A stretch of 63,093 nt of DNA, the filler included, from Licmophora abbreviata (lineage: Eukaryota): NCBI GenBank assembly GCA_900291995.1. It is 10 parts of 10 records of this genome, joined end to end, with 100 filler letters (N's around TTAATTAATTAA, not from the genome) between each part and the next. Parts side by side here need not be neighbours in the genome. Positions count along the whole stretch, not along the records: positions 1 to 5,891 come from OLMU01004673.1; 9 more parts are not named here. One strand, 5' to 3'. The notes below the pieces were generated by a model. It saw only the letters and a list, made by a program, of their open reading frames with translations, searched no databases and was not told the origin of the DNA. Position numbers and translations under genes: made by a program. How positions within the stretch are numbered: the first letter of the stretch is position 1; each line of letters opens with the position of its first letter. This document shows, piece by piece, positions 226 to 59,985 of the stretch.

Positions 226-1352
226 ATGACTCGATACGTGTTCCTATTTAAGACTACAGTAGCTGCGGCGTTGACCTTTTCGACATCAGCTGCATCGCAA
301 TCAGGTTTCGCGCGCAACCCATCACCATCCGTCGCGTTCCTTGGTTTGGCTGCTTCGCTTCGATCACCAGACCCATTGGTGTCTCCCTTGACGCGAATGT
401 TTTCCGCGACCGAGAATGGAGTCCACACTGCGCTTGTGTTGCCCTATGAAAACGGATCACATAACTCAGCCAGAGTCACTATTCCATCGGACGACGACGA
501 CTCTACATTCTGCAAGGTCGCGTTTCGAACTCGCCTCGAGGCAACGGTTGCCTCCTGTAGAGCACTGAAAAAGTCGAGTCTTTGGGTTGAAGTTCCCATG
601 TCACGTGCTAGTTTCATTGAAGATTGCGAAGAGTTCGGGCTTTCGTTTCATCACGCTGTGGGGAAAGTGGCGAGTCTTTCTCTCTGGCTCAACGACTCTC
701 CTTGCAAAATACCCGAGTACGCGACGCATCATGTGGTGAGCTTGCGCTACATTCGGATTGAGACTTCTGTGTTGTAGGATTGGCTCATGTCTGAATGCCT
801 TCTTCTATCAAACAGGGTGTGGGTGCAGTGGTTGTCAACAGTCGAGATGAGATATTGTGTGTACGGGAGCTTCGAAACAACCTAAGACCTTGGAAGATCC
901 CTGGTGGACTTTCCGACTTAGGGGAGCAAATAGACGAGGCAGCAGTACGTGAGGTTATGGAAGAGACGGGAGTACCTTGCCAATTCCTGACGGTACTGAG
1001 CTTTCGACACACGCATGGATTGAACCTGGGGCGTTCGGACCTCTACTTTGTATGCCGATTGGCGCCTATTGAAGGCTCTGATGAGAACGGCAATGCCATC
1101 ATCCCCGACCCAGTACCAGAAGAAGGTGAGATTGAAAGTGCGGCTTGGGTGCCACTGAATGAGTATCGATCCATGATTGAAGGCGAGGACGGTCATCCAA
1201 TGATGCAGCACATCATGCAACTGTACGAACAACCGTGGAAAGACCACGACATCCAGAAGACAGTTGTCCCGAGTATCGTACCTGGCCGAAAGCCTTCTCC
1301 AATTTATCACCCACCGATACGAACGAAAAATAGCGGCCATAACGAATACTGA
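226..1352 (+). CDS. Nudix hydrolase (NUDT6/AtNUDT8-like), 2 exons
   Basis: Nudix box GGLSDLGEQIDEAAVREVMEETGV. Intron 736-815 (GTGAG...AACAG) joins PEYATHHV to GVGAVVVN, the family pre-Nudix motif. Start may be 199 or 226; N-terminus looks like a targeting peptide. Confidence 0.88.
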
Positions 1353-1533: not shown

Positions 1534-1836
1534 CTAGCGAGCACGTTGGCGCATCTTACGACGCTTGCGGCGAAGACGGCGCATGCGCTTCTTGCGCCAC
1601 TTCTTGCGCATGCCTCCATTGACATCCAGGAGCATGGTGAGGGTATCTTCGTCCTCGACCCCGTTGGTAAGGAGAGATCCGCCTTCAAGGGCGCTAGCAC
1701 CATTGACGAGACGAATCAAGTCAGCGGGGACGAACTCCTTGTTCTCAATCATGAGCTTGAGAGACTCGACGGAAGCGTCAGCGTCCACCGTGTAGGTGGA
1801 GGCAGCGCCACTAGCACCAGCAATGAAAATCTGCAT
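1534..1836 (-). CDS. RPL41: Ubiquitin-like domain fused to ribosomal protein eL41 (eS32)
   Basis: 75-aa beta-grasp-like domain (MQIFI...LLDVNGG) followed directly by MRKKWRKKRMRRLRRKRRKMRQRAR, a 25-aa near match to canonical eL41. Confidence 0.9.
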   Translation of the reverse strand: MQIFIAGASGAASTYTVDADASVESLKLMIENKEFVPADLIRLVNGASALEGGSLLTNGVEDEDTLTMLLDVNGGMRKKWRKKRMRRLRRKRRKMRQRAR

Positions 1837-2387
1837 ACTTTCAGGAAGACTTGGTTGCTTCGGACCTGCAATAGAGTGAGAGAGTCAAAGGTAGAAGACT
1901 AAGGTAAGTCGATCGAGCGATGTGTGGCTCATATCCTTATTTTCTGGGGCCACCAACCAAAGTGAGAGAAAAGACAGTTTCTCTAGCGCTTTCGTCCCTC
2001 TCTTTTCCACTCTACAGCACACTCGTATCTCCATACGTTCATCCATCGTTCTAGACGGCTCAGAGTCTCATGGCAGTCGCAACAACGCCATCGTACCTGT
2101 AACAGGGAGCATACAGCAAGACTTGTGACACGTTCGACCTTCTTCCTGAACATGTTCACGTAGAGCGTGTACTGAAACGTACGCGAATAGTATACCTATG
2201 TAGACGTCTACTAACGGTCTGTATGGCGCCAGGTCGACGAGATCCAATCTCACACCCCCGCACACCACGAAGACAGACTCAACTTCACACGAATCGACCG
2301 CGGCCAAGTTCAGTTGTCGCTGCAGCTCACCTCCTTGCTTCTTAACTTCTCATCTTCGCCGAGCTAATTTCATTTGCTTTCAATATC

Positions 2388-5300
2388 ATGGCGGATAAAA
2401 CTAAGAATCTCGCCGACAACGGTGGAGAAAAGAACGAGGATGGCCGAGGAGGGCTTGCGTTTGGGACGGACTTGGGCGGATACGATGCCATTGGGAGTAT
2501 GGGTGGCCCAGCAGAGGAGTCCTACGTCGAATCGCTCCCTACGGGGGAAGAAGAACGTCGTATGATGGAAGGGGATGATATTCGACAACGGGAAGATTTG
2601 GAAATGATGGACGAGGGGCGTGTGAGCACTCATCCTGCTACTCGAGCTGCGGCCTCGGGAGCGAAGAAGGTACGAGCCACATGGACGAGAAGTCACCACG
2701 CTCTTGATTGCGAGAACAAGGGTATCCAATCTCAAAATTCTCTTTCTTTTATTTCCTTATCGCAGTCGGAGGATGCTGTCGAGGGGGAAGACGTAGATCC
2801 CTTTGCCAATCGAGAGGACGGTGGTGGCTCAGGGCTGGTCAATACTCGGATTGCGGATCGTGAATCTGACTATCAAAGGCGTCGTCACAATCGTGCCTTG
2901 CGGGAGGATGGAATGTCGTTCAAGGATGCTATGGCCCATGCATCTGTTGATAAGGAGCGTCATGAACTAATTCAGGAAGCTCGAAAGGACTTGCTTGATG
3001 ACGACGGGAATCTCAAGCAACCCGAGGAAGAAGCCGATACTACTCAGAGCAAGCGACGTCGTCGTCGTTGGGATGATTCGACGAACTCGGCTGCAACAAA
3101 GGAAGAAGAGAAAAAATCGGTCATGGTTACGGATGCCGAGTCGATGTCGTCCAAGTCGCGATGGGATGATGATGTGTCCACGTCGACTGCCGGTAGTCGT
3201 AGACGGAAACGGTGGGACGAGACTCCCGTAGTGGCGTCTGGTACGGCATCGTTAAGTACCATCACTGCCACGCCACTTGTGGCCTCCATGACAGACGCTA
3301 CTCCTGTCGCTGGGGCGAGTCGTTGGGATGAAACGCCCATGGTCTCTTCTTCTGCTGTGGGAGTGGGAGAAACGCCCGGTGGACGCAAGCGTAGCCGCTG
3401 GGATGCTACGCCGGTATCATCGTCGCAAGCCTCGACTGCTATTGTCGCCCCGCCTCTTGCCACACCTCTGTCGGGCAATCTAGCCAAGGCACTGGCGCTC
3501 GAAAAAGAGATGGAGTCGCGTAATCGGCCGTGGACGGAGACGGCATTGGATGCGATACTGCCCTCGGAGGGCTACTCTATTATTCGTCCTCCCGCGAGTT
3601 ACATGCCACTGCGCACCCCTGGCCGGAAGCTTCTAGCAACACCAACGCCGATGGGAATGACTCCCGCTGGATTTCAGATGGAAGTACCCGTTGAAGAACG
3701 GCAGGAAGCAAGTGTGCAGGACATTCGTGAGGCCTACGGCGTGCCGTTGGCTCCAACCGCCGCTGAGGTTGGCACAGAAGCAGGGGCTCTGCCCTACATC
3801 AAGCCCGAAGATATGCAGTACTTTGGCCGACTCATGGAAGATACGGACGAAGCCAGGATTTCCAAAGAAGAAGCCAACGAACGTCGCATCATGGCGCTTC
3901 TGCTCAAGATAAAGAGCGGGACGCCACCGCAGCGCAAGACAGCCATGCGCCAGATAACCGACCGAGCTCGATTTTTTGGTGCTGGCCCACTCTTCAACCA
4001 GATCCTCCCTTTGCTCATGAGCCCCACACTCGAGGATCAGGAAAGACATTTGCTAGTCAAGGTGATTGATCGCGTCTTGTACAAGCTCGATGATCTGGTC
4101 CGTCCGTTTGTTCACCGGATATTGGCTGTGATTGAGCCTTTGCTCATCGACGAGGACTACTACGCTCGTGTCGAAGGTCGAGAAATCATTAGTAATCTCG
4201 CCAAGGCTGCTGGTTTAGCTACCATGATTGCAACGATGCGCCCGGACATTGATAACCCCGACGAGTACGTTCGCAACACTACGTCAAGGGCGTTCGCCGT
4301 TGTCGCGAGCGCACTCGGTGTGCCAACCCTGCTCCCCTTTCTCAAGGCTGTCTGCCAATCGCGCAAGTCGTGGCAGGCACGCCACACGGGGATCAAAATT
4401 GTACAACAGATTGCGTTGCTAATGGGAGTGGCGGTTCTCCCGTATCTCCGAGAGCTTGTGGAAATTGTGAGCCATGGTCTGACGGACGATATGCAAAAGG
4501 TGCGGATCATCACCGCGCTGACACTTGCGGCTCTTGCCGAAGCGGCGAACCCATATGGCATTGAGAGTTTTGACTCGGCGATTCGTCCACTGTGGAAGGG
4601 TGCGCTAGAACATCACGGTAAGGCTCTAGCGGCTTTCCTGAAAGCAGTCGGATTCGTCATCCCACTCATGGAAGAGAACTACGCGAGTCACTACACGCGA
4701 TTGGTCATGCCTATTCTCTTGCGCGAGTTCCACTCTCCTGACGAAGAAATGAAGAAGATTGTCTTGAAGGTCATCCAGCAATGCGTCGCCACGGCTGGTG
4801 TCGAACCCGACTATATTCGCAAGGAGATCTTGCCTGAGTTCTTTCGAAACTTTTGGATTCGGCGAATGGCGCTCGATCGCCGCAACTACAAGCAAGTTGT
4901 TGATACAACCGAGGAACTTGCAAACAAGGTCGGATGCTCGGACATTGTTAGTCGTATCGTTGATGATCTCAAAGATGACTCGGAACCATACCGTAGGATG
5001 GTAATGGAGACCATCCAGAAGGTGCTGACGAATCTTGGCGCGGGAGATATTGACGAGCGTCTTGAGGAGCGCTTAATCGACGGCATTCTATATGCATTTC
5101 AGGAGCAGGCAGTTGACGCGACGTCAACGGGCTCAGGTGCATTCGGCAAAGAAGGGCAGATTATGCTCGACGGGTTCGGCACGGTAGTGAACGCTCTTGG
5201 CGAGCGCTGCAAGCCTTACTTGAAGCAGATCGCGGGGACTATCAAATGGCGTCTGAACAACAAGGCCGCCTCGGTTCGAATGCAGGCTGCCGATCTGATT

Positions 5301-5891
5301 GGAAGGATCGCCGTCGTGATGAAAGCATGCGGTGAAGACCAACTTATGGGACATCTCGGTGTTGTTCTCTATGAGTACCTAGGCGAAGAGTATCCCGAGG
5401 TGCTGGGCTCTATCCTGGGGGCGCTTCGAGCTATCGTTAGCGTGATTGGAATGACCAAGATGACACCTCCGATTCGCGATCTGCTTCCCCGACTGACTCC
5501 AATTCTACGAAACCGGCACGAGAAGGTCCAGGAGAACTGCATCGACTTGGTAAGTTTGTGTGTTTTGAGTTTGTATCTTTTATAGAAACGAGAGATCGGC
5601 AACTGATATAGGCGCATTCGTTCTCTCTTTCGTCCATTCATTTGCTTCTTGCTTCCGGCCATGTACTCACTCTCTTCTCTCGTTGTCGCTTTCATTCCAG
5701 GTCGGTCGCATCGCAGACCGCGGTGCGGAGTTTGTATCGGCGAAGGAGTGGATGCGCATTTGCTTCGAACTACTCGAAATGCTTCGTGCCCACAAGAAAG
5801 CCATCAAGCGTGCAGCTGTAAGCACCTTTGGCTACATCGCTAGAGCGATCGGTCCACAAGATGTTCTTCACACTCTCCTCAATAATCTCAA
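2388..5891 (+). CDS. SF3B1: Splicing factor 3B subunit 1, 3' truncated by gap
   Basis: RWDETP repeats, [18 protein letters not shown] and HEAT repeats ([20 protein letters not shown]). Introns 2670-2765 (in frame) and 5550-5700. Confidence 0.97.
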
Positions 5892-5991
5892 NNNNNNNNN
5901 NNNNNNNNNNNNNNNNNNNNNNNNNNNNNNNNNNNTTAATTAATTAANNNNNNNNNNNNNNNNNNNNNNNNNNNNNNNNNNNNNNNNNNNN
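5892..5991. other. Artificial contig/scaffold spacer
   Basis: 44 N + TTAATTAATTAA + 44 N; stops in all six frames. Confidence 0.99.
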
Positions 5992-10752: not shown

Positions 10753-10852
10753 NNNNNNNNNNNNNNNNNNNNNNNNNNNNNNNNNNNNNNNNNNNNTTAA
10801 TTAATTAANNNNNNNNNNNNNNNNNNNNNNNNNNNNNNNNNNNNNNNNNNNN
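10753..10852. other. Artificial contig/scaffold spacer
   Basis: 44 N + TTAATTAATTAA + 44 N. Confidence 0.99.
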
Positions 10853-34901: not shown

Positions 34902-35001
34902 NNNNNNNNNNNNNNNNNNNNNNNNNNNNNNNNNNNNNNNNNNNNTTAATTAATTAANNNNNNNNNNNNNNNNNNNNNNNNNNNNNNNNNNNNNNNNNNN
35001 N
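34902..35001. other. Artificial contig/scaffold spacer
   Basis: 44 N + TTAATTAATTAA + 44 N. Confidence 0.99.
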
Positions 35002-37653: not shown

Positions 37654-37753
37654 NNNNNNNNNNNNNNNNNNNNNNNNNNNNNNNNNNNNNNNNNNNNTTA
37701 ATTAATTAANNNNNNNNNNNNNNNNNNNNNNNNNNNNNNNNNNNNNNNNNNNN
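37654..37753. other. Artificial contig/scaffold spacer
   Basis: 44 N + TTAATTAATTAA + 44 N. Confidence 0.99.
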
Positions 37754-42388: not shown

Positions 42389-43989
42389 ATGCCGCATCCC
42401 ATTCAGTCCCTCGTAAACTCATGGATCAAGGTCAACACGAAGCATGTGATCTTCCCGAGAAATGAAGGCAATGGTGAAAGGCCGCCTCCAGAAAATGCAA
42501 ATCGGGGAAGTTTGACTTCAAAGCATGCTTCGCCACAACGGAAAAAATTGGGGCGGCAGATTGAGGAGGAGCATGTCTCGCACGATACCGCAAAGACAAC
42601 ACCATCGACGACAGCAGATGTAGATCCGGAAGCACTCGCGATTTCACGCATGGACACTCGACGACAGAACAGGCGGGGGCTGCGACGGACAGTATCGCAC
42701 TCGGATCTACTTCGCGAACTTGCAAAAGAAAAGGGGAAAGCTGTTGCAGACGGTGACATGGACGACGAGGCGAAAAACAAGGCCGACAATGACTTGCTTA
42801 CGCAGAAGCCGCCCACAAATGAGAGTCTTGAGTCTCAAAACGATAAATCAGGAGACAAGAAGGCTCGATCTCAGCAGACGTATCAGTCATTGCTACGACC
42901 AGCCCCTCAGCTGATTTCAAAGCGACAACAGACGGCAGCGACGACTGGGAAGTATCTTAATGAAGCTGTGTTTGTCCAGCAGATGGAGCAAGCGAGAGCT
43001 CAACATCAGCGTGNNNNNNNNNNNNNNNNNNNNNNNNNNNNNNNNNNNNNNNNNNNNTTAATTAATTAANNNNNNNNNNNNNNNNNNNNNNNNNNNNNNN
43101 NNNNNNNNNNNNNCTGCTCGACCTGGAGTACTTACGGAGCGTCGCTGTTCGGACAGAGTTCACATGCAAAGCTTCCGAGGATCCAAAAGGCACGCGACTT
43201 CGGCCTAACCCCTTGAGATCAAAAGCTAGCTCCCCGGACGAAGCGTCGAAGCGGCTGGTAGAAGTGGCCACTTCGCACAGGAGGCAGATCGAGCAAATGA
43301 CGAAAGAACGAGTAAGTTTGTTCTGTGTGTTGATTGCCGTCAACGCCCGTAGTTTTGTCACCTGATCTTCTCTCGTCGTTTGCTTCCGTAAGTCACGTTG
43401 GCGTACCGACATGCAAGTGAAACTCTCCAAGATCACAATGATCTGTAAAGAGCTGAACGAAGAGAATGGCATTCGGAAACAAGCGGCTGCATCACTGGAA
43501 TCGGAATTGCAAGTAGTCAGAGACGAACGGAATGTTCTTGCCTCCGAGGTCGAACAACTGCGCGCGCAGATCGGTTTATATGAGCGAGAGGAAATTGAGT
43601 TCCGTCAACTCCAAGAAATGACTGCGAGCTATGAAACAGGTGTTCTGGACAGTGCCGACGAGGGTATCCGTCAACGAAACTCAGTGACCGCAGATTTGTC
43701 GAACCGGATGGAACGTGCAATGGATACGTTAGAGACTGAAAGGGCTCAACAGCGCCAACGTCGACAGATCATCTTTCCAGTGCAGAGATCAGCGCAGTCG
43801 AATGACGCGCGAGGCCACTCCACTGTCTCAAACGAGGTTGCTGCTTTAAAGGCGGAAGTCACGCGAATACGAGAATCCGCGCGAGAGACCGAAAAGCTGC
43901 TGGCGTCGACAATACTCGACGCTGATAGGAACGAGACCGCGCTTCGCACCAAGTGTGAGACCTTGGAGAAGCAGCTCAGAGCATCTTAA
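42389..43989 (+). CDS. Hypothetical coiled-coil protein, interrupted by gap
   Basis: Open frames on both sides of the spacer on the same strand; intron ~43312-43392; heptad-rich C-terminus. Confidence 0.55.
43014..43113. other. Artificial contig/scaffold spacer
   Basis: 44 N + TTAATTAATTAA + 44 N. Confidence 0.99.
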
Positions 43990-46736: not shown

Positions 46737-48847
46737 ATGGGGATCACAGGAGTCATTCGACCACCGCCAGAGATTCGCGCTGTGGCGGACAAGACAGCCT
46801 TGTTTGTTGCCAAAAATGGGAGAGCGTTTGAAGATAAAATACTGAGAAGCGATAAAGGAAAGACTCCGAAGTTTGCGTTCTTGCACGGCACCAGCCCATT
46901 TCACGCTTACTACGAAGATCAGATCCGATTCTACGAAGAGGGTGGGAACGACGACGAAGAGGATACAAAGAAGAAATCCGCTGATGAGGAGAACGAGACA
47001 GAAGATGGAACAGATGAAAAACAGGAAGAACGGAAGCAAGAAAAGTCGCAAAAGGCCAGTGCAATGGACCCAGTCGCGCTTAGCTTGCTGTCGCAGCGAA
47101 ACAAGATTGCTGCTGTCCGAAAGGCCGGCGAGGTCCACAAGGACAGCGAGGAAAGTTCTGATCCTCCTCCGTCGGAAATAGTGAACCCCCCGGGATTGAA
47201 TTTCGTGATTGTTGTCGCACCAAATGTAGCACCGGTACAGCTCGAAACAATCNNNNNNNNNNNNNNNNNNNNNNNNNNNNNNNNNNNNNNNNNNNNTTAA
47301 TTAATTAANNNNNNNNNNNNNNNNNNNNNNNNNNNNNNNNNNNNNNNNNNNNAGTAGCGCAGTTTGTTGCGCTCGACGGAAAGGGTGGTCCGTTCATGAA
47401 AGAGCTGGCGATCCGCGAATGGTCGAATCCTACCTTTGCATTTTTGCAGCCCCGCCATGGGCACTTCGCTTACTTTTCCGCGCTTGTTGATGGGTATAGG
47501 CGGATAATATCCACGTGGACCCAGAGCGATGGGGCCGACCTACCCCGGTCAATCGAGGAAAGCTTGGACGGCGCGGCCTATAGAGCCGAGTACGAACGAG
47601 ACGCTGCAGAACGTCAACGACTGCAGGAAGAAGGTGGCGAGGCTTCGGGTGTTGCACTCATTGACTGGCATGACTTTGTTGTAGTCGAAATGATTGACTT
47701 TCCGATTGCAGAAGTCGTTCAGACTTCGCTGCCGCCACCCGCACATTCTGCCGCCGCCGCGGACGAAGGAATGGAAGAATCTGATGAAGAAGGCGAGGCA
47801 ATTCGTGTTGTACCAAGCTATGAGCCTAAGGTGGTGTCAACGCAGAGTGTTGCCGCCGATGCTTCGCGCACGCATGTGATTGATCCCTTAACCGGGAAGA
47901 GCGTGAGGATCGGCGACATGCCGGAGCACATGAGGATTCAGCTTCTGGATCCAAAGTGGGCGGAGGAGAGAAAGAAGTTTCTGGATAAGCAGAAAGATAG
48001 CAATCTTGTGGAGGGCGACATGATTGCAAGCAACATATCTCGATTCGCGCAAGCCCGTGGCGATCTTTTCGGTGCATCGGTACGTTTGTGTTCGCGACAA
48101 ATGATGTTGTACAACTTATGTTTTTGTCTTATCCTCAACACGTCTTGTATTGGTTACATGTAGGGGGACGACCTTTCTAGTCAAGATGCCGAGTCCAGGA
48201 AACGGCTAGACGAGGCGAATCGTTTGATCCGAGAACAATCTCAGTCTGGTCCGACGCTCCCTCCCCCGATGCCCGCACCGATGACTGCAGCCAACCAATC
48301 GGGTCTGGCCCGTCCACCTCCCCGAGACGAATATGCCAACCAATTGGCACCCCCACCGAAGAAAGCAAGAATCGACGAACCTACATCTTTCGGTTTGCCT
48401 GCACCGCCTCCGCCTCCTATCGGGTTGCCACCACCTCCAAATGGTTTGCCGCCGCCGCCGCTGCCCCCGACACCTGATCAACAGCCACCATCGACAGCAG
48501 ACGACGCACCGAAGGAAGCGTCGGCGAATGTCATGCCCCCAGCAGAGTTTGCTGCTTCGCTGGCTTCGCCAACTGTGACGCTGTCCATTCAAATTCCACG
48601 CGATGCGTCTAACGCGACATGGAAATTCAACGGTCAACTCGTGGAACTCTCGGTTGACGTTATGTCCAATGTGAAAGCGATCAAGGGGGAGCTCAAGTCG
48701 CACCTTGGAGACATTCCACTAAACAAGATACAACTCAAAGATGGCGAAAGCGGATTTCTCAAGGACAACCAGACGCTGGCGCAGCTCAATATCGGGCCAA
48801 CGGCTGATCTCGAGATGAGGGCCAAAAGCCGCGGCGGGCGAAAGTAG
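46737..48847 (+). CDS. SF3A1: Splicing factor 3A subunit 1 (Prp21), split by gap
   Basis: SURP1 (GVIRPPPEIRAVADKTALFVAKNG), SURP2 across the spacer, IDWHDFVVVEMIDF, EHMRIQLLDPKW and C-terminal ubiquitin-like domain ending KSRGGRK; intron 48080-48163. Confidence 0.95.
47253..47352. other. Artificial spacer inside SF3A1
   Basis: 44 N + TTAATTAATTAA + 44 N. Confidence 0.99.
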
Positions 48848-53118: not shown

Positions 53119-53218
53119 NNNNNNNNNNNNNNNNNNNNNNNNNNNNNNNNNNNNNNNNNNNNTTAATTAATTAANNNNNNNNNNNNNNNNNNNNNNNNNN
53201 NNNNNNNNNNNNNNNNNN
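53119..53218. other. Artificial contig/scaffold spacer
   Basis: 44 N + TTAATTAATTAA + 44 N. Confidence 0.99.
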
Positions 53219-58767: not shown

Positions 58768-58867
58768 NNNNNNNNNNNNNNNNNNNNNNNNNNNNNNNNN
58801 NNNNNNNNNNNTTAATTAATTAANNNNNNNNNNNNNNNNNNNNNNNNNNNNNNNNNNNNNNNNNNNN
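58768..58867. other. Artificial contig/scaffold spacer
   Basis: 44 N + TTAATTAATTAA + 44 N. Confidence 0.99.
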
Positions 58868-59885: not shown

Positions 59886-59985
59886 NNNNNNNNNNNNNNN
59901 NNNNNNNNNNNNNNNNNNNNNNNNNNNNNTTAATTAATTAANNNNNNNNNNNNNNNNNNNNNNNNNNNNNNNNNNNNNNNNNNNN
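59886..59985. other. Artificial spacer at the eukaryote/bacterium junction
   Basis: 44 N + TTAATTAATTAA + 44 N. Confidence 0.99.

Follow-up and report, generated by a model that had tools for sequence, protein, structure and literature searches.

The open reading frame (ORF) studied here is located in a window of 63,093 nucleotides, which is the whole stretch of DNA analysed from the genome assembly of Licmophora abbreviata and has a GC content of 0.507. Translation of the minus strand at 1534..1836 gave a single ATG-to-TAG frame of 100 codons, uninterrupted and without intron, which ends with the stop codon TAG at 1534..1536 and is bounded by an in-frame TGA at 1885..1887 (minus strand), 17 codons 5' of Met1; relatives with a like layout have 95-101 residues. 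Residues 1-75 (MQIF...LLDVNGG; 1612..1836, minus strand) comprise an acidic ubiquitin-like (Ubl) domain, predicted to be of the beta-grasp type, with 12 Asp/Glu versus 3 Lys/Arg. Residues 76-100 (MRKKWRKKRMRRLRRKRRKMRQRAR; 1537..1611, minus strand) comprise the polybasic ribosomal protein eL41, with 18 Lys/Arg. The two parts meet at the junction codons Gly74-Gly75-Met76 (1609..1617, minus strand), where family conservation and the alignment of PDB eL41 chains point to a putative cleavage after Gly75. All of the figures given in the original prediction for the ORF and its 75-residue Ubl domain (12 Asp/Glu, 3 Lys/Arg, end in LLDVNGG) were reproduced, and the strand, which had been left unstated there, is the minus strand. 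The gene is referred to as Ubl-eL41 in this study.

Ubl-eL41 is found in an ordinary nuclear context and is the one copy of eL41 within the 63-kb window. It is flanked tail to tail by a NUDIX hydrolase gene (795-1352, plus strand; Pfam 70.2 bits) and head to head by a gene for an SF3B1 homologue (2388-5585, plus strand), identified by an SF3b1 domain of 107.9 bits and by HEAT repeats, whose ORF probably runs on beyond 5585, interrupted there by an intron or by masking. From the positions of the two divergent genes, the spacer between Ubl-eL41 and SF3B1 (1837..2387, on neither strand in particular) is presumed to hold the promoter. The window also contains nine pairs of 44-base N runs, 12 bases apart within each pair and amounting to 792 N in total (5892-5991, 10753-10852, 34902-35001, 37654-37753, 43014-43113, 47253-47352, 53119-53218, 58768-58867 and 59886-59985), which have the look of masked sequence and none of which is near Ubl-eL41.

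The C-terminal part was identified by Pfam and by comparison with solved structures. Ribosomal_L41 (PF05162) matched residues 76-98 with 29.4 bits, above the gathering cut-off of 22.3, and phmmer aligned residues 76-100 with 26 distinct PDB eL41 sequences, residues 1-24/25 of this part pairing with residues 1-24/25 of the plant, human and yeast chains. Met76 corresponds to the first residue of the eL41 chains, 22-25 residues long, from solved plant, human, yeast and other ribosomes, a protein to which PDB depositors now also give the name eS32, and residues 76-99 were modelled by AF2 as one long helix. Translation, Pfam and the PDB alignment thus all bear out the earlier description of a complete 25-residue eL41 that carries 18 Lys/Arg and its own Met. 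Longer eL41 chains of 33-41 residues are present in the PDB for kinetoplastids, Plasmodium, Toxoplasma, Euglena and one further protist; in these the eL41 part forms the C-terminal end and is preceded by 9-16 extra N-terminal residues, and lengthening of the tiny eL41 ORF may be a recurrent theme.

Of the 693 candidates in a first homologue search with Ubl-eL41 as the query, 660 were retained at E<=1e-3. Among the 120 matches listed, nearly all of them 95-101 residues long, 119 contain the L41 Pfam family; the sole listed match without it, P0103, has a broken tail. The ubiquitin family of Pfam (PF00240) matched residues 3-70 of the window protein with 22.1 bits (E 1.3e-4), under the cut-off of 25.4, and many relatives carry PF00240 in their precomputed annotation while many others among the matches listed carry PF05162 only. 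A family profile was built from an alignment, A1, of the query and 99 of the 120 listed matches (100 rows), from which 21 rows had been left out by hand, mostly sequences with extra N-terminal residues, near-duplicates and P0103. This profile matched PDB ubiquitin at 43.4 bits per unit (i-Evalue 3e-10), with profile positions 1-76 aligned to ubiquitin 1-77. The domain positions invariant in A1 are M1, Q2, K27, E31, N32, P37, L43, G53 and G75.

Structure prediction by AF2 on the 100 rows of A1 reached a mean pLDDT of 91.4 and a pTM of 0.77, with strands at 2-6, 12-16, 41-45 and 65-70 and a helix at 23-34, arranged in the order of ubiquitin. When the model was compared with the PDB by Foldseek, ubiquitin chains ranked first and all matches listed had E<=6.4e-8; single-ubiquitin chains gave TM values by target of 0.84-0.93 at 27-36% identity. 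The Ubl of Ubl-eL41 is therefore predicted to have a beta-grasp fold like that of ubiquitin. At the sequence level the window domain is identical to ubiquitin at 24 of 75 positions (32%), and 35 diverse members range from 22 to 49% in the alignment. Two positions distinguish all 35 from ubiquitin, Glu at ubiquitin position 31 and Phe or Tyr at 35, where ubiquitin has Gln and Gly. Position 63, a Lys in ubiquitin, is Asp or Glu in 31/35, position 72 is Arg in none of the 35, and 31/35 have Asn, Glu, Pro or Lys at position 74; Gly76 in ubiquitin numbering is present in 35/35 and Gly75 in 32/35. Lys48, Lys63, Arg72 and Arg74 of ubiquitin are missing from most members and Lys27 is the sole Lys widely kept. 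A bona fide ubiquitin was considered as the identity of the head and ruled out by the 32% identity and by the failure to keep Lys48, Lys63 and the Arg72-Leu-Arg-Gly-Gly tail. The best explanation of these features is a dedicated, fast-evolving ubiquitin descendant that no longer serves as ubiquitin.

Selection on the domain was estimated from 26 full ORFs found in 43 loci, together with the window. Six pairs with dS<=0.82, a range not contradicted by saturation, gave domain dN/dS values of 0.072 (L005/L006), 0.118 (L010/L012), 0.135 (L002/L003), 0.167 (L018/L022), 0.253 (L017/L022) and 0.176 (L013/L023); more distant and saturation-prone pairs reached 0.57. The domain is under purifying selection. 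Conservation of the upstream domain in relatives, whose lack the original prediction had named as one finding that would speak against it, was thus observed, the domain being kept at a dN/dS of 0.07-0.25. Taken together, the homologues, the profile match, the fold prediction and the dN/dS values indicate that the domain is translated, selected and of a ubiquitin-derived fold. A chance ORF or an artefact was also considered and is ruled out by Pfam, the homologues, the ubiquitin profile match and dN/dS.

Junction and charge were surveyed in the 215 members that carry the eL41 start motif. The residue before the eL41 Met is Gly in 215/215, as in the window, where the head abuts residue 1 of eL41 with Gly (...NGG|MRKKW). 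The residue before this last Gly is Gly in 186 members, Ala in 28 and Ser in one, and Thr-Gly and Asp-Gly junctions occur in further sequences beyond the 215. The acidity noticed in the window domain proved to be family-wide: the net charge of the domain is below zero in all 215 members, with a mean of -8.3 and a range of -14 to -3, versus a ubiquitin that is neutral by composition. The domains contain 1.7 Lys on average, and 38 of the 215 have only 70-71 residues, being without ubiquitin positions 7-11 (the beta1-beta2 loop, including Leu8). The tail, described earlier as departing from LRLRGG, is never LRLRGG in the 35 diverse members, in keeping with the lack of Arg72 noted above. A doubled junction, NGGM[KR]GG|MRGKW, was seen in nine members (P0276, P0278-P0282 and P0284-P0286, relatives of the sequence in locus L001); here four residues around the cleavage site are repeated, a feature that persists throughout a clade, so that either site could be cut.

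On these grounds Ubl-eL41 is read as a precursor of eL41/eS32 from which the head is cleaved, in the manner of FUBI-eS30 and Ub-eL40, and we give this reading a probability of roughly 0.7; the cleavage, the type of protease and the carrier or chaperone role are the parts that we infer. Translation would start at Met1, residues 1-75 would fold into a ubiquitin-type beta-grasp domain, and a ubiquitin-type (deubiquitinase-like) protease would cut after the invariant last Gly. The 25-residue eL41 would be released with its own Met and then incorporated into the ribosome. The exact join, the invariant last Gly and the ubiquitin-like fold fit a processing site for a ubiquitin-type protease, and the constant acidity and position of the head point to a carrier acting in cis. 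Such a head may extend an ORF of 25 codons to a length that can be translated normally, may with its net charge of about -8 compensate for the peptide's +18 until it is delivered, as has been suggested for Ub-eL40, Ub-eS31 and FUBI-eS30, and perhaps escorts the peptide until assembly. Since the head is not ubiquitin, co-production of ubiquitin, or a coupling of its supply to ribosome output, cannot explain Ubl-eL41. The view that this is a further carrier-fusion type gains support from the ORF and from the homology of both parts as far as a further type of ubiquitin(-like)/ribosomal-protein fusion is concerned.

Besides serving as a carrier, the released Ubl might be a conjugatable modifier with targets of its own, as had been suggested from its free Gly-Gly end. 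The Gly-Gly of 186/215 members would suit this, the invariant surface-helix residues Glu31 and Phe/Tyr35, shared across clades, hint at a conserved partner, and a gene of the UQ_con family of E2 enzymes adjoins Ubl-eL41 in locus L001. The suggestion is nevertheless weakened by the 29/215 members without Gly-Gly (28 Ala-Gly and one Ser-Gly), by the 38/215 that lack the beta1-beta2 loop, and by the low between-clade identity and fast divergence, with Lys48, Lys63, Arg72 and Arg74 not kept and Lys27 alone widely retained; no stand-alone gene for the Ubl domain occurs among the matches listed either. We regard such a second role as unlikely.

Slightly less probable still is that no cleavage takes place and that the Ubl stays on eL41 as a lineage-specific appendage of the ribosome. 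The residue preceding the last Gly bears on this point, as Ala or Ser in 29/215 members and Thr or Asp elsewhere could slow ubiquitin-type proteases, and the extended eL41 chains of other protists, with their 9-16 additional residues, make N-terminal extra residues on eL41 conceivable in principle. However, a last Gly in 215/215 and a join placed exactly at eL41 residue 1 are what is expected of a processing site and not of a mere linker. In the 80S structures of yeast and human, eL41 lies deep in the interface of the two subunits as bridge eB14, a position that leaves little room for a retained globular domain of 75 residues.

The third alternative, in which eL41 is made by initiation at Met76 and the 75 upstream codons are a regulatory leader, can draw on the retained Met of eL41 and on the G at -3 of Met76, but it is very improbable, given that both parts stand in one frame without a stop across hundreds of sequences and that the domain has a dN/dS of 0.07-0.25, a confidently predicted fold and six ATGs ahead of Met76. 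Three of these ATGs are in frame (Met1 and codons 29 and 68) and three out of frame (at about codons 45, 71 and 73); with A at -3 of Met1, scanning ribosomes should start at Met1 and are unlikely to reach Met76 as a start. For the cleaved precursor, transcript assemblies also contain full-length ORFs: MMETSP assemblies of diatoms, among them Thalassiosira, Skeletonema, Chaetoceros and Corethron, contain sequences labelled 'type:complete'. In T. pseudonana the rpL41 promoter routinely serves as a constitutive one, according to the part of the source available (PMC5561644). At the exact locus the RNA support is thin, consisting of one 152-base contig of a polyA metatranscriptome that covers 1398-1544 with one mismatch. 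The sequencing matches came from three runs with word shares of 0.04-0.10, all of them contigs and mostly of conserved parts of relatives, and metatranscriptome contigs of this kind give neither transcript start, end nor strand.

Among the known fusions, FUBI-eS30 (FAU), a holozoan precursor, is similar in having a divergent ubiquitin-like head with Gly-Gly directly before a small basic ribosomal protein, and FUBI-eS30 clusters are the next-nearest feature neighbours of Ubl-eL41 in the ESM Atlas (0.89-0.90) after the L41 clusters. Ubl-eL41 differs in its cargo, the 25-residue eL41/eS32, in its lineage, the stramenopiles instead of holozoans, and in its head, an independent ubiquitin derivative with the signature Glu31 and Phe/Tyr35. 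Ub-eL40 and Ub-eS31 share with it an N-terminal beta-grasp unit, the junction Gly and a basic ribosomal-protein tail, and in the PDB the family profile also matched fusion chains of both eS31 and eL40. Their head, in contrast, is ubiquitin proper, which hardly varies in sequence and supplies the ubiquitin pool, whereas that of Ubl-eL41 is only 22-49% identical to ubiquitin and in most members is without Lys48, Lys63, Arg72 and Arg74. Processing of FUBI-eS30 is carried out by USP36, as the available part of that report has it (PMC8354635).

The architecture itself has been catalogued before. In the sections available, Martin-Villanueva et al. 2021 mention 'a few cases' in which eS8, eS19, uL1 or eL41 is joined to ubiquitin, and the text calls such fusions anecdotal; Table S2 contains exactly one ubiquitin~Ribosomal_L41 entry, Emiliania huxleyi R1FF22 (PMC8122580), and the list of fusions is repeated in the part seen of a further article (PMC11354881). 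As the table presents it, R1FF22 has the two Pfam families in the same order as Ubl-eL41, but it is a single, unanalysed haptophyte entry, and the comparison is one of Pfam architecture, not of head sequence. The stramenopile members mostly escape such architecture tables because the domain often lies below the Pfam ubiquitin cut-off; in databases they are labelled '60S ribosomal protein L41', 'ubiquitin' or, wrongly, 'S27Ae'. L41 is never mentioned in the available text of a study of ubiquitin fusions in algae (Sibbald et al. 2019; PMC6332867), and no characterisation of the Ubl-eL41 fusion, of its breadth or of the distinct identity of its head was found in the literature. The table entry and the database labels, together with this result, indicate that the fusion had been seen but not studied. 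The novelty originally claimed for it accordingly stands as regards a characterisation, and was overstated as regards the architecture, which the portion of the review consulted already records.

Why some ribosomal proteins sit behind ubiquitin is an open question, which a 2021 review, as far as its available text goes, takes up under the title 'Chance or Necessity?' (PMC8122580). Because its head is not ubiquitin, Ubl-eL41 lends itself as a natural test of whether a carrier/chaperone role accounts for fusions of this kind in general, since it separates that of a carrier for a tiny and very basic peptide from that of co-production of ubiquitin. The head has drifted to 22-49% identity and lost its chain-forming lysines, yet it has been kept before eL41 across the sampled ochrophytes and oomycetes and is always acidic. 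Transformation is possible in T. pseudonana, P. tricornutum and Phytophthora, so that the question of the carrier can be put to the test in these organisms.

At E<=1e-3, a search seeded with one divergent member retained 511 of its 524 candidates, and a search seeded with another retained 675 of 712. Named diatoms among the matches listed are Cyclophora, Fragilaria, Seminavis, Chaetoceros, Thalassiosira, Skeletonema and Corethron; the Phaeophyceae named there are Choristocarpus, Discosporangium and Scytosiphon, and the other named ochrophytes are Chrysoparadoxa australica, the xanthophyte Tribonema minus and the raphidophyte Heterosigma akashiwo. The oomycetes named among the matches listed include five Phytophthora (P. 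megakarya, P. infestans (PITG_15069), P. cactorum, P. nicotianae and P. ramorum) as well as Pythium insidiosum, P. oligandrum, Lagenidium giganteum, Thraustotheca, Saprolegnia and three species of Aphanomyces. The stramenopile affiliation guessed earlier fits these relatives, which are diatoms, brown algae, other ochrophytes and oomycetes. Two labels look like contamination, and were found in the clusters of P0223 and P0312: another 'Heterosigma akashiwo' UniRef entry sits inside a Skeletonema cluster, so the raphidophyte record should be treated with caution, and an entry of the foraminifer 'Nonionella stella' sits inside a Thalassiosira cluster. Clusters of the ESM Atlas that combine L41 and ubiquitin, taken as leads only, comprise one commonest in Bacillariophyta, one in Oomycota and two that are mostly labelled 'Viruses'. 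HMMER with the family profile returned 8211 proteins at E<=1e-3, and nine of the best 150 were single-stretch Ubl-eL41, these best 150 being dominated by polyubiquitins, whose repeat scores sum, so that the search does not map the outer limits of the family.

The phylogeny of the domain supported a diatom clade (95/89, 15 rows) and an oomycete clade (99/93, 8 rows). The tree is based on 75 columns, with 10 of 45 inner branches unresolved and ubiquitin on a long branch, and was used for supported clades alone and not for rooting or for the naming of viral donors. Glu31, Phe/Tyr35, Asp/Glu63 and the lack of Arg72, which are common to the members, together with the diatom and oomycete clades, argue at the sequence level for one origin of the domain, and inheritance since at least the common ancestor of ochrophytes and oomycetes is the simplest reading. 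The fusion is also a candidate shared character for stramenopile phylogeny. The sole record for haptophytes is the review's table entry, E. huxleyi R1FF22. In six metagenomic loci (L031, L035-L038 and L043) the eL41 exon is preceded in frame only by ...GG and unrelated sequence, and the sequence that matches the domain is found at another place in the same locus, which suggests that some lineages have introns within the domain-coding part.

Ubl-eL41 was also observed on three IMG/VR contigs, at L001:6001-6303, L002:150-446 and L003:590-886, on the plus strand in each case. In L001 (GC 0.42) it stands among tightly packed, intron-free genes, which encode an XRN domain, a thioredoxin, two RFC-like AAA proteins, DnaJ, the adjacent UQ_con E2, DUF72, a TBP-like protein and a thymidine kinase, a set that resembles that of giant viruses. 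L002 and L003, with GC contents of 0.25 and 0.23, are named as giant-virus MAGs; each encodes a Ubl-eL41 of 98 residues (Pfam L41 23.9 and 26.5 bits, respectively), with neighbours that include a type I methylase, a helicase, a GNAT protein, a nucleotidyltransferase and an amidotransferase. The three contigs are candidate viral sequences by their IMG/VR labels and gene content, the available stretches containing no hallmark capsid or polymerase gene. The basic tails of their Ubl-eL41 proteins match eL41 specifically.

A comparable case is the giant-virus Ub-eL40, which Thomy et al. 2024, in the text available, present as the first case of a ribosomal protein in a eukaryotic virus (PMC11499249). 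There too, as far as that text describes it, a fusion of a ubiquitin-type head with a ribosomal protein lies on Nucleocytoviricota-type contigs, but the cargo is eL40 and not the eL41 of L001-L003; 'eL41' and 'L41' have 0 occurrences in what is available of the main text of that article (PMC11499249), and no report of a virus-encoded eL41 was found in the literature. Should the viral status of the contigs be borne out, they would lengthen the short list of ribosomal proteins that viruses encode. Considering distribution, head and contigs as a whole, we lean somewhat towards regarding Ubl-eL41 as an ancient precursor system, already in place before ochrophytes and oomycetes diverged, a fourth class of fusion between a ubiquitin-type head and a ribosomal protein with a domain lineage of its own, like FUBI, and captured more than once by giant viruses of protists; eL41 would, if this is true, be the second ribosomal protein encoded by eukaryotic viruses. 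Just upstream of Ubl-eL41 in L003, at 109-546 on the plus strand, lies another ORF that ends in Gly-Gly followed by a Lys/Arg/Ser tail of about 40 residues.
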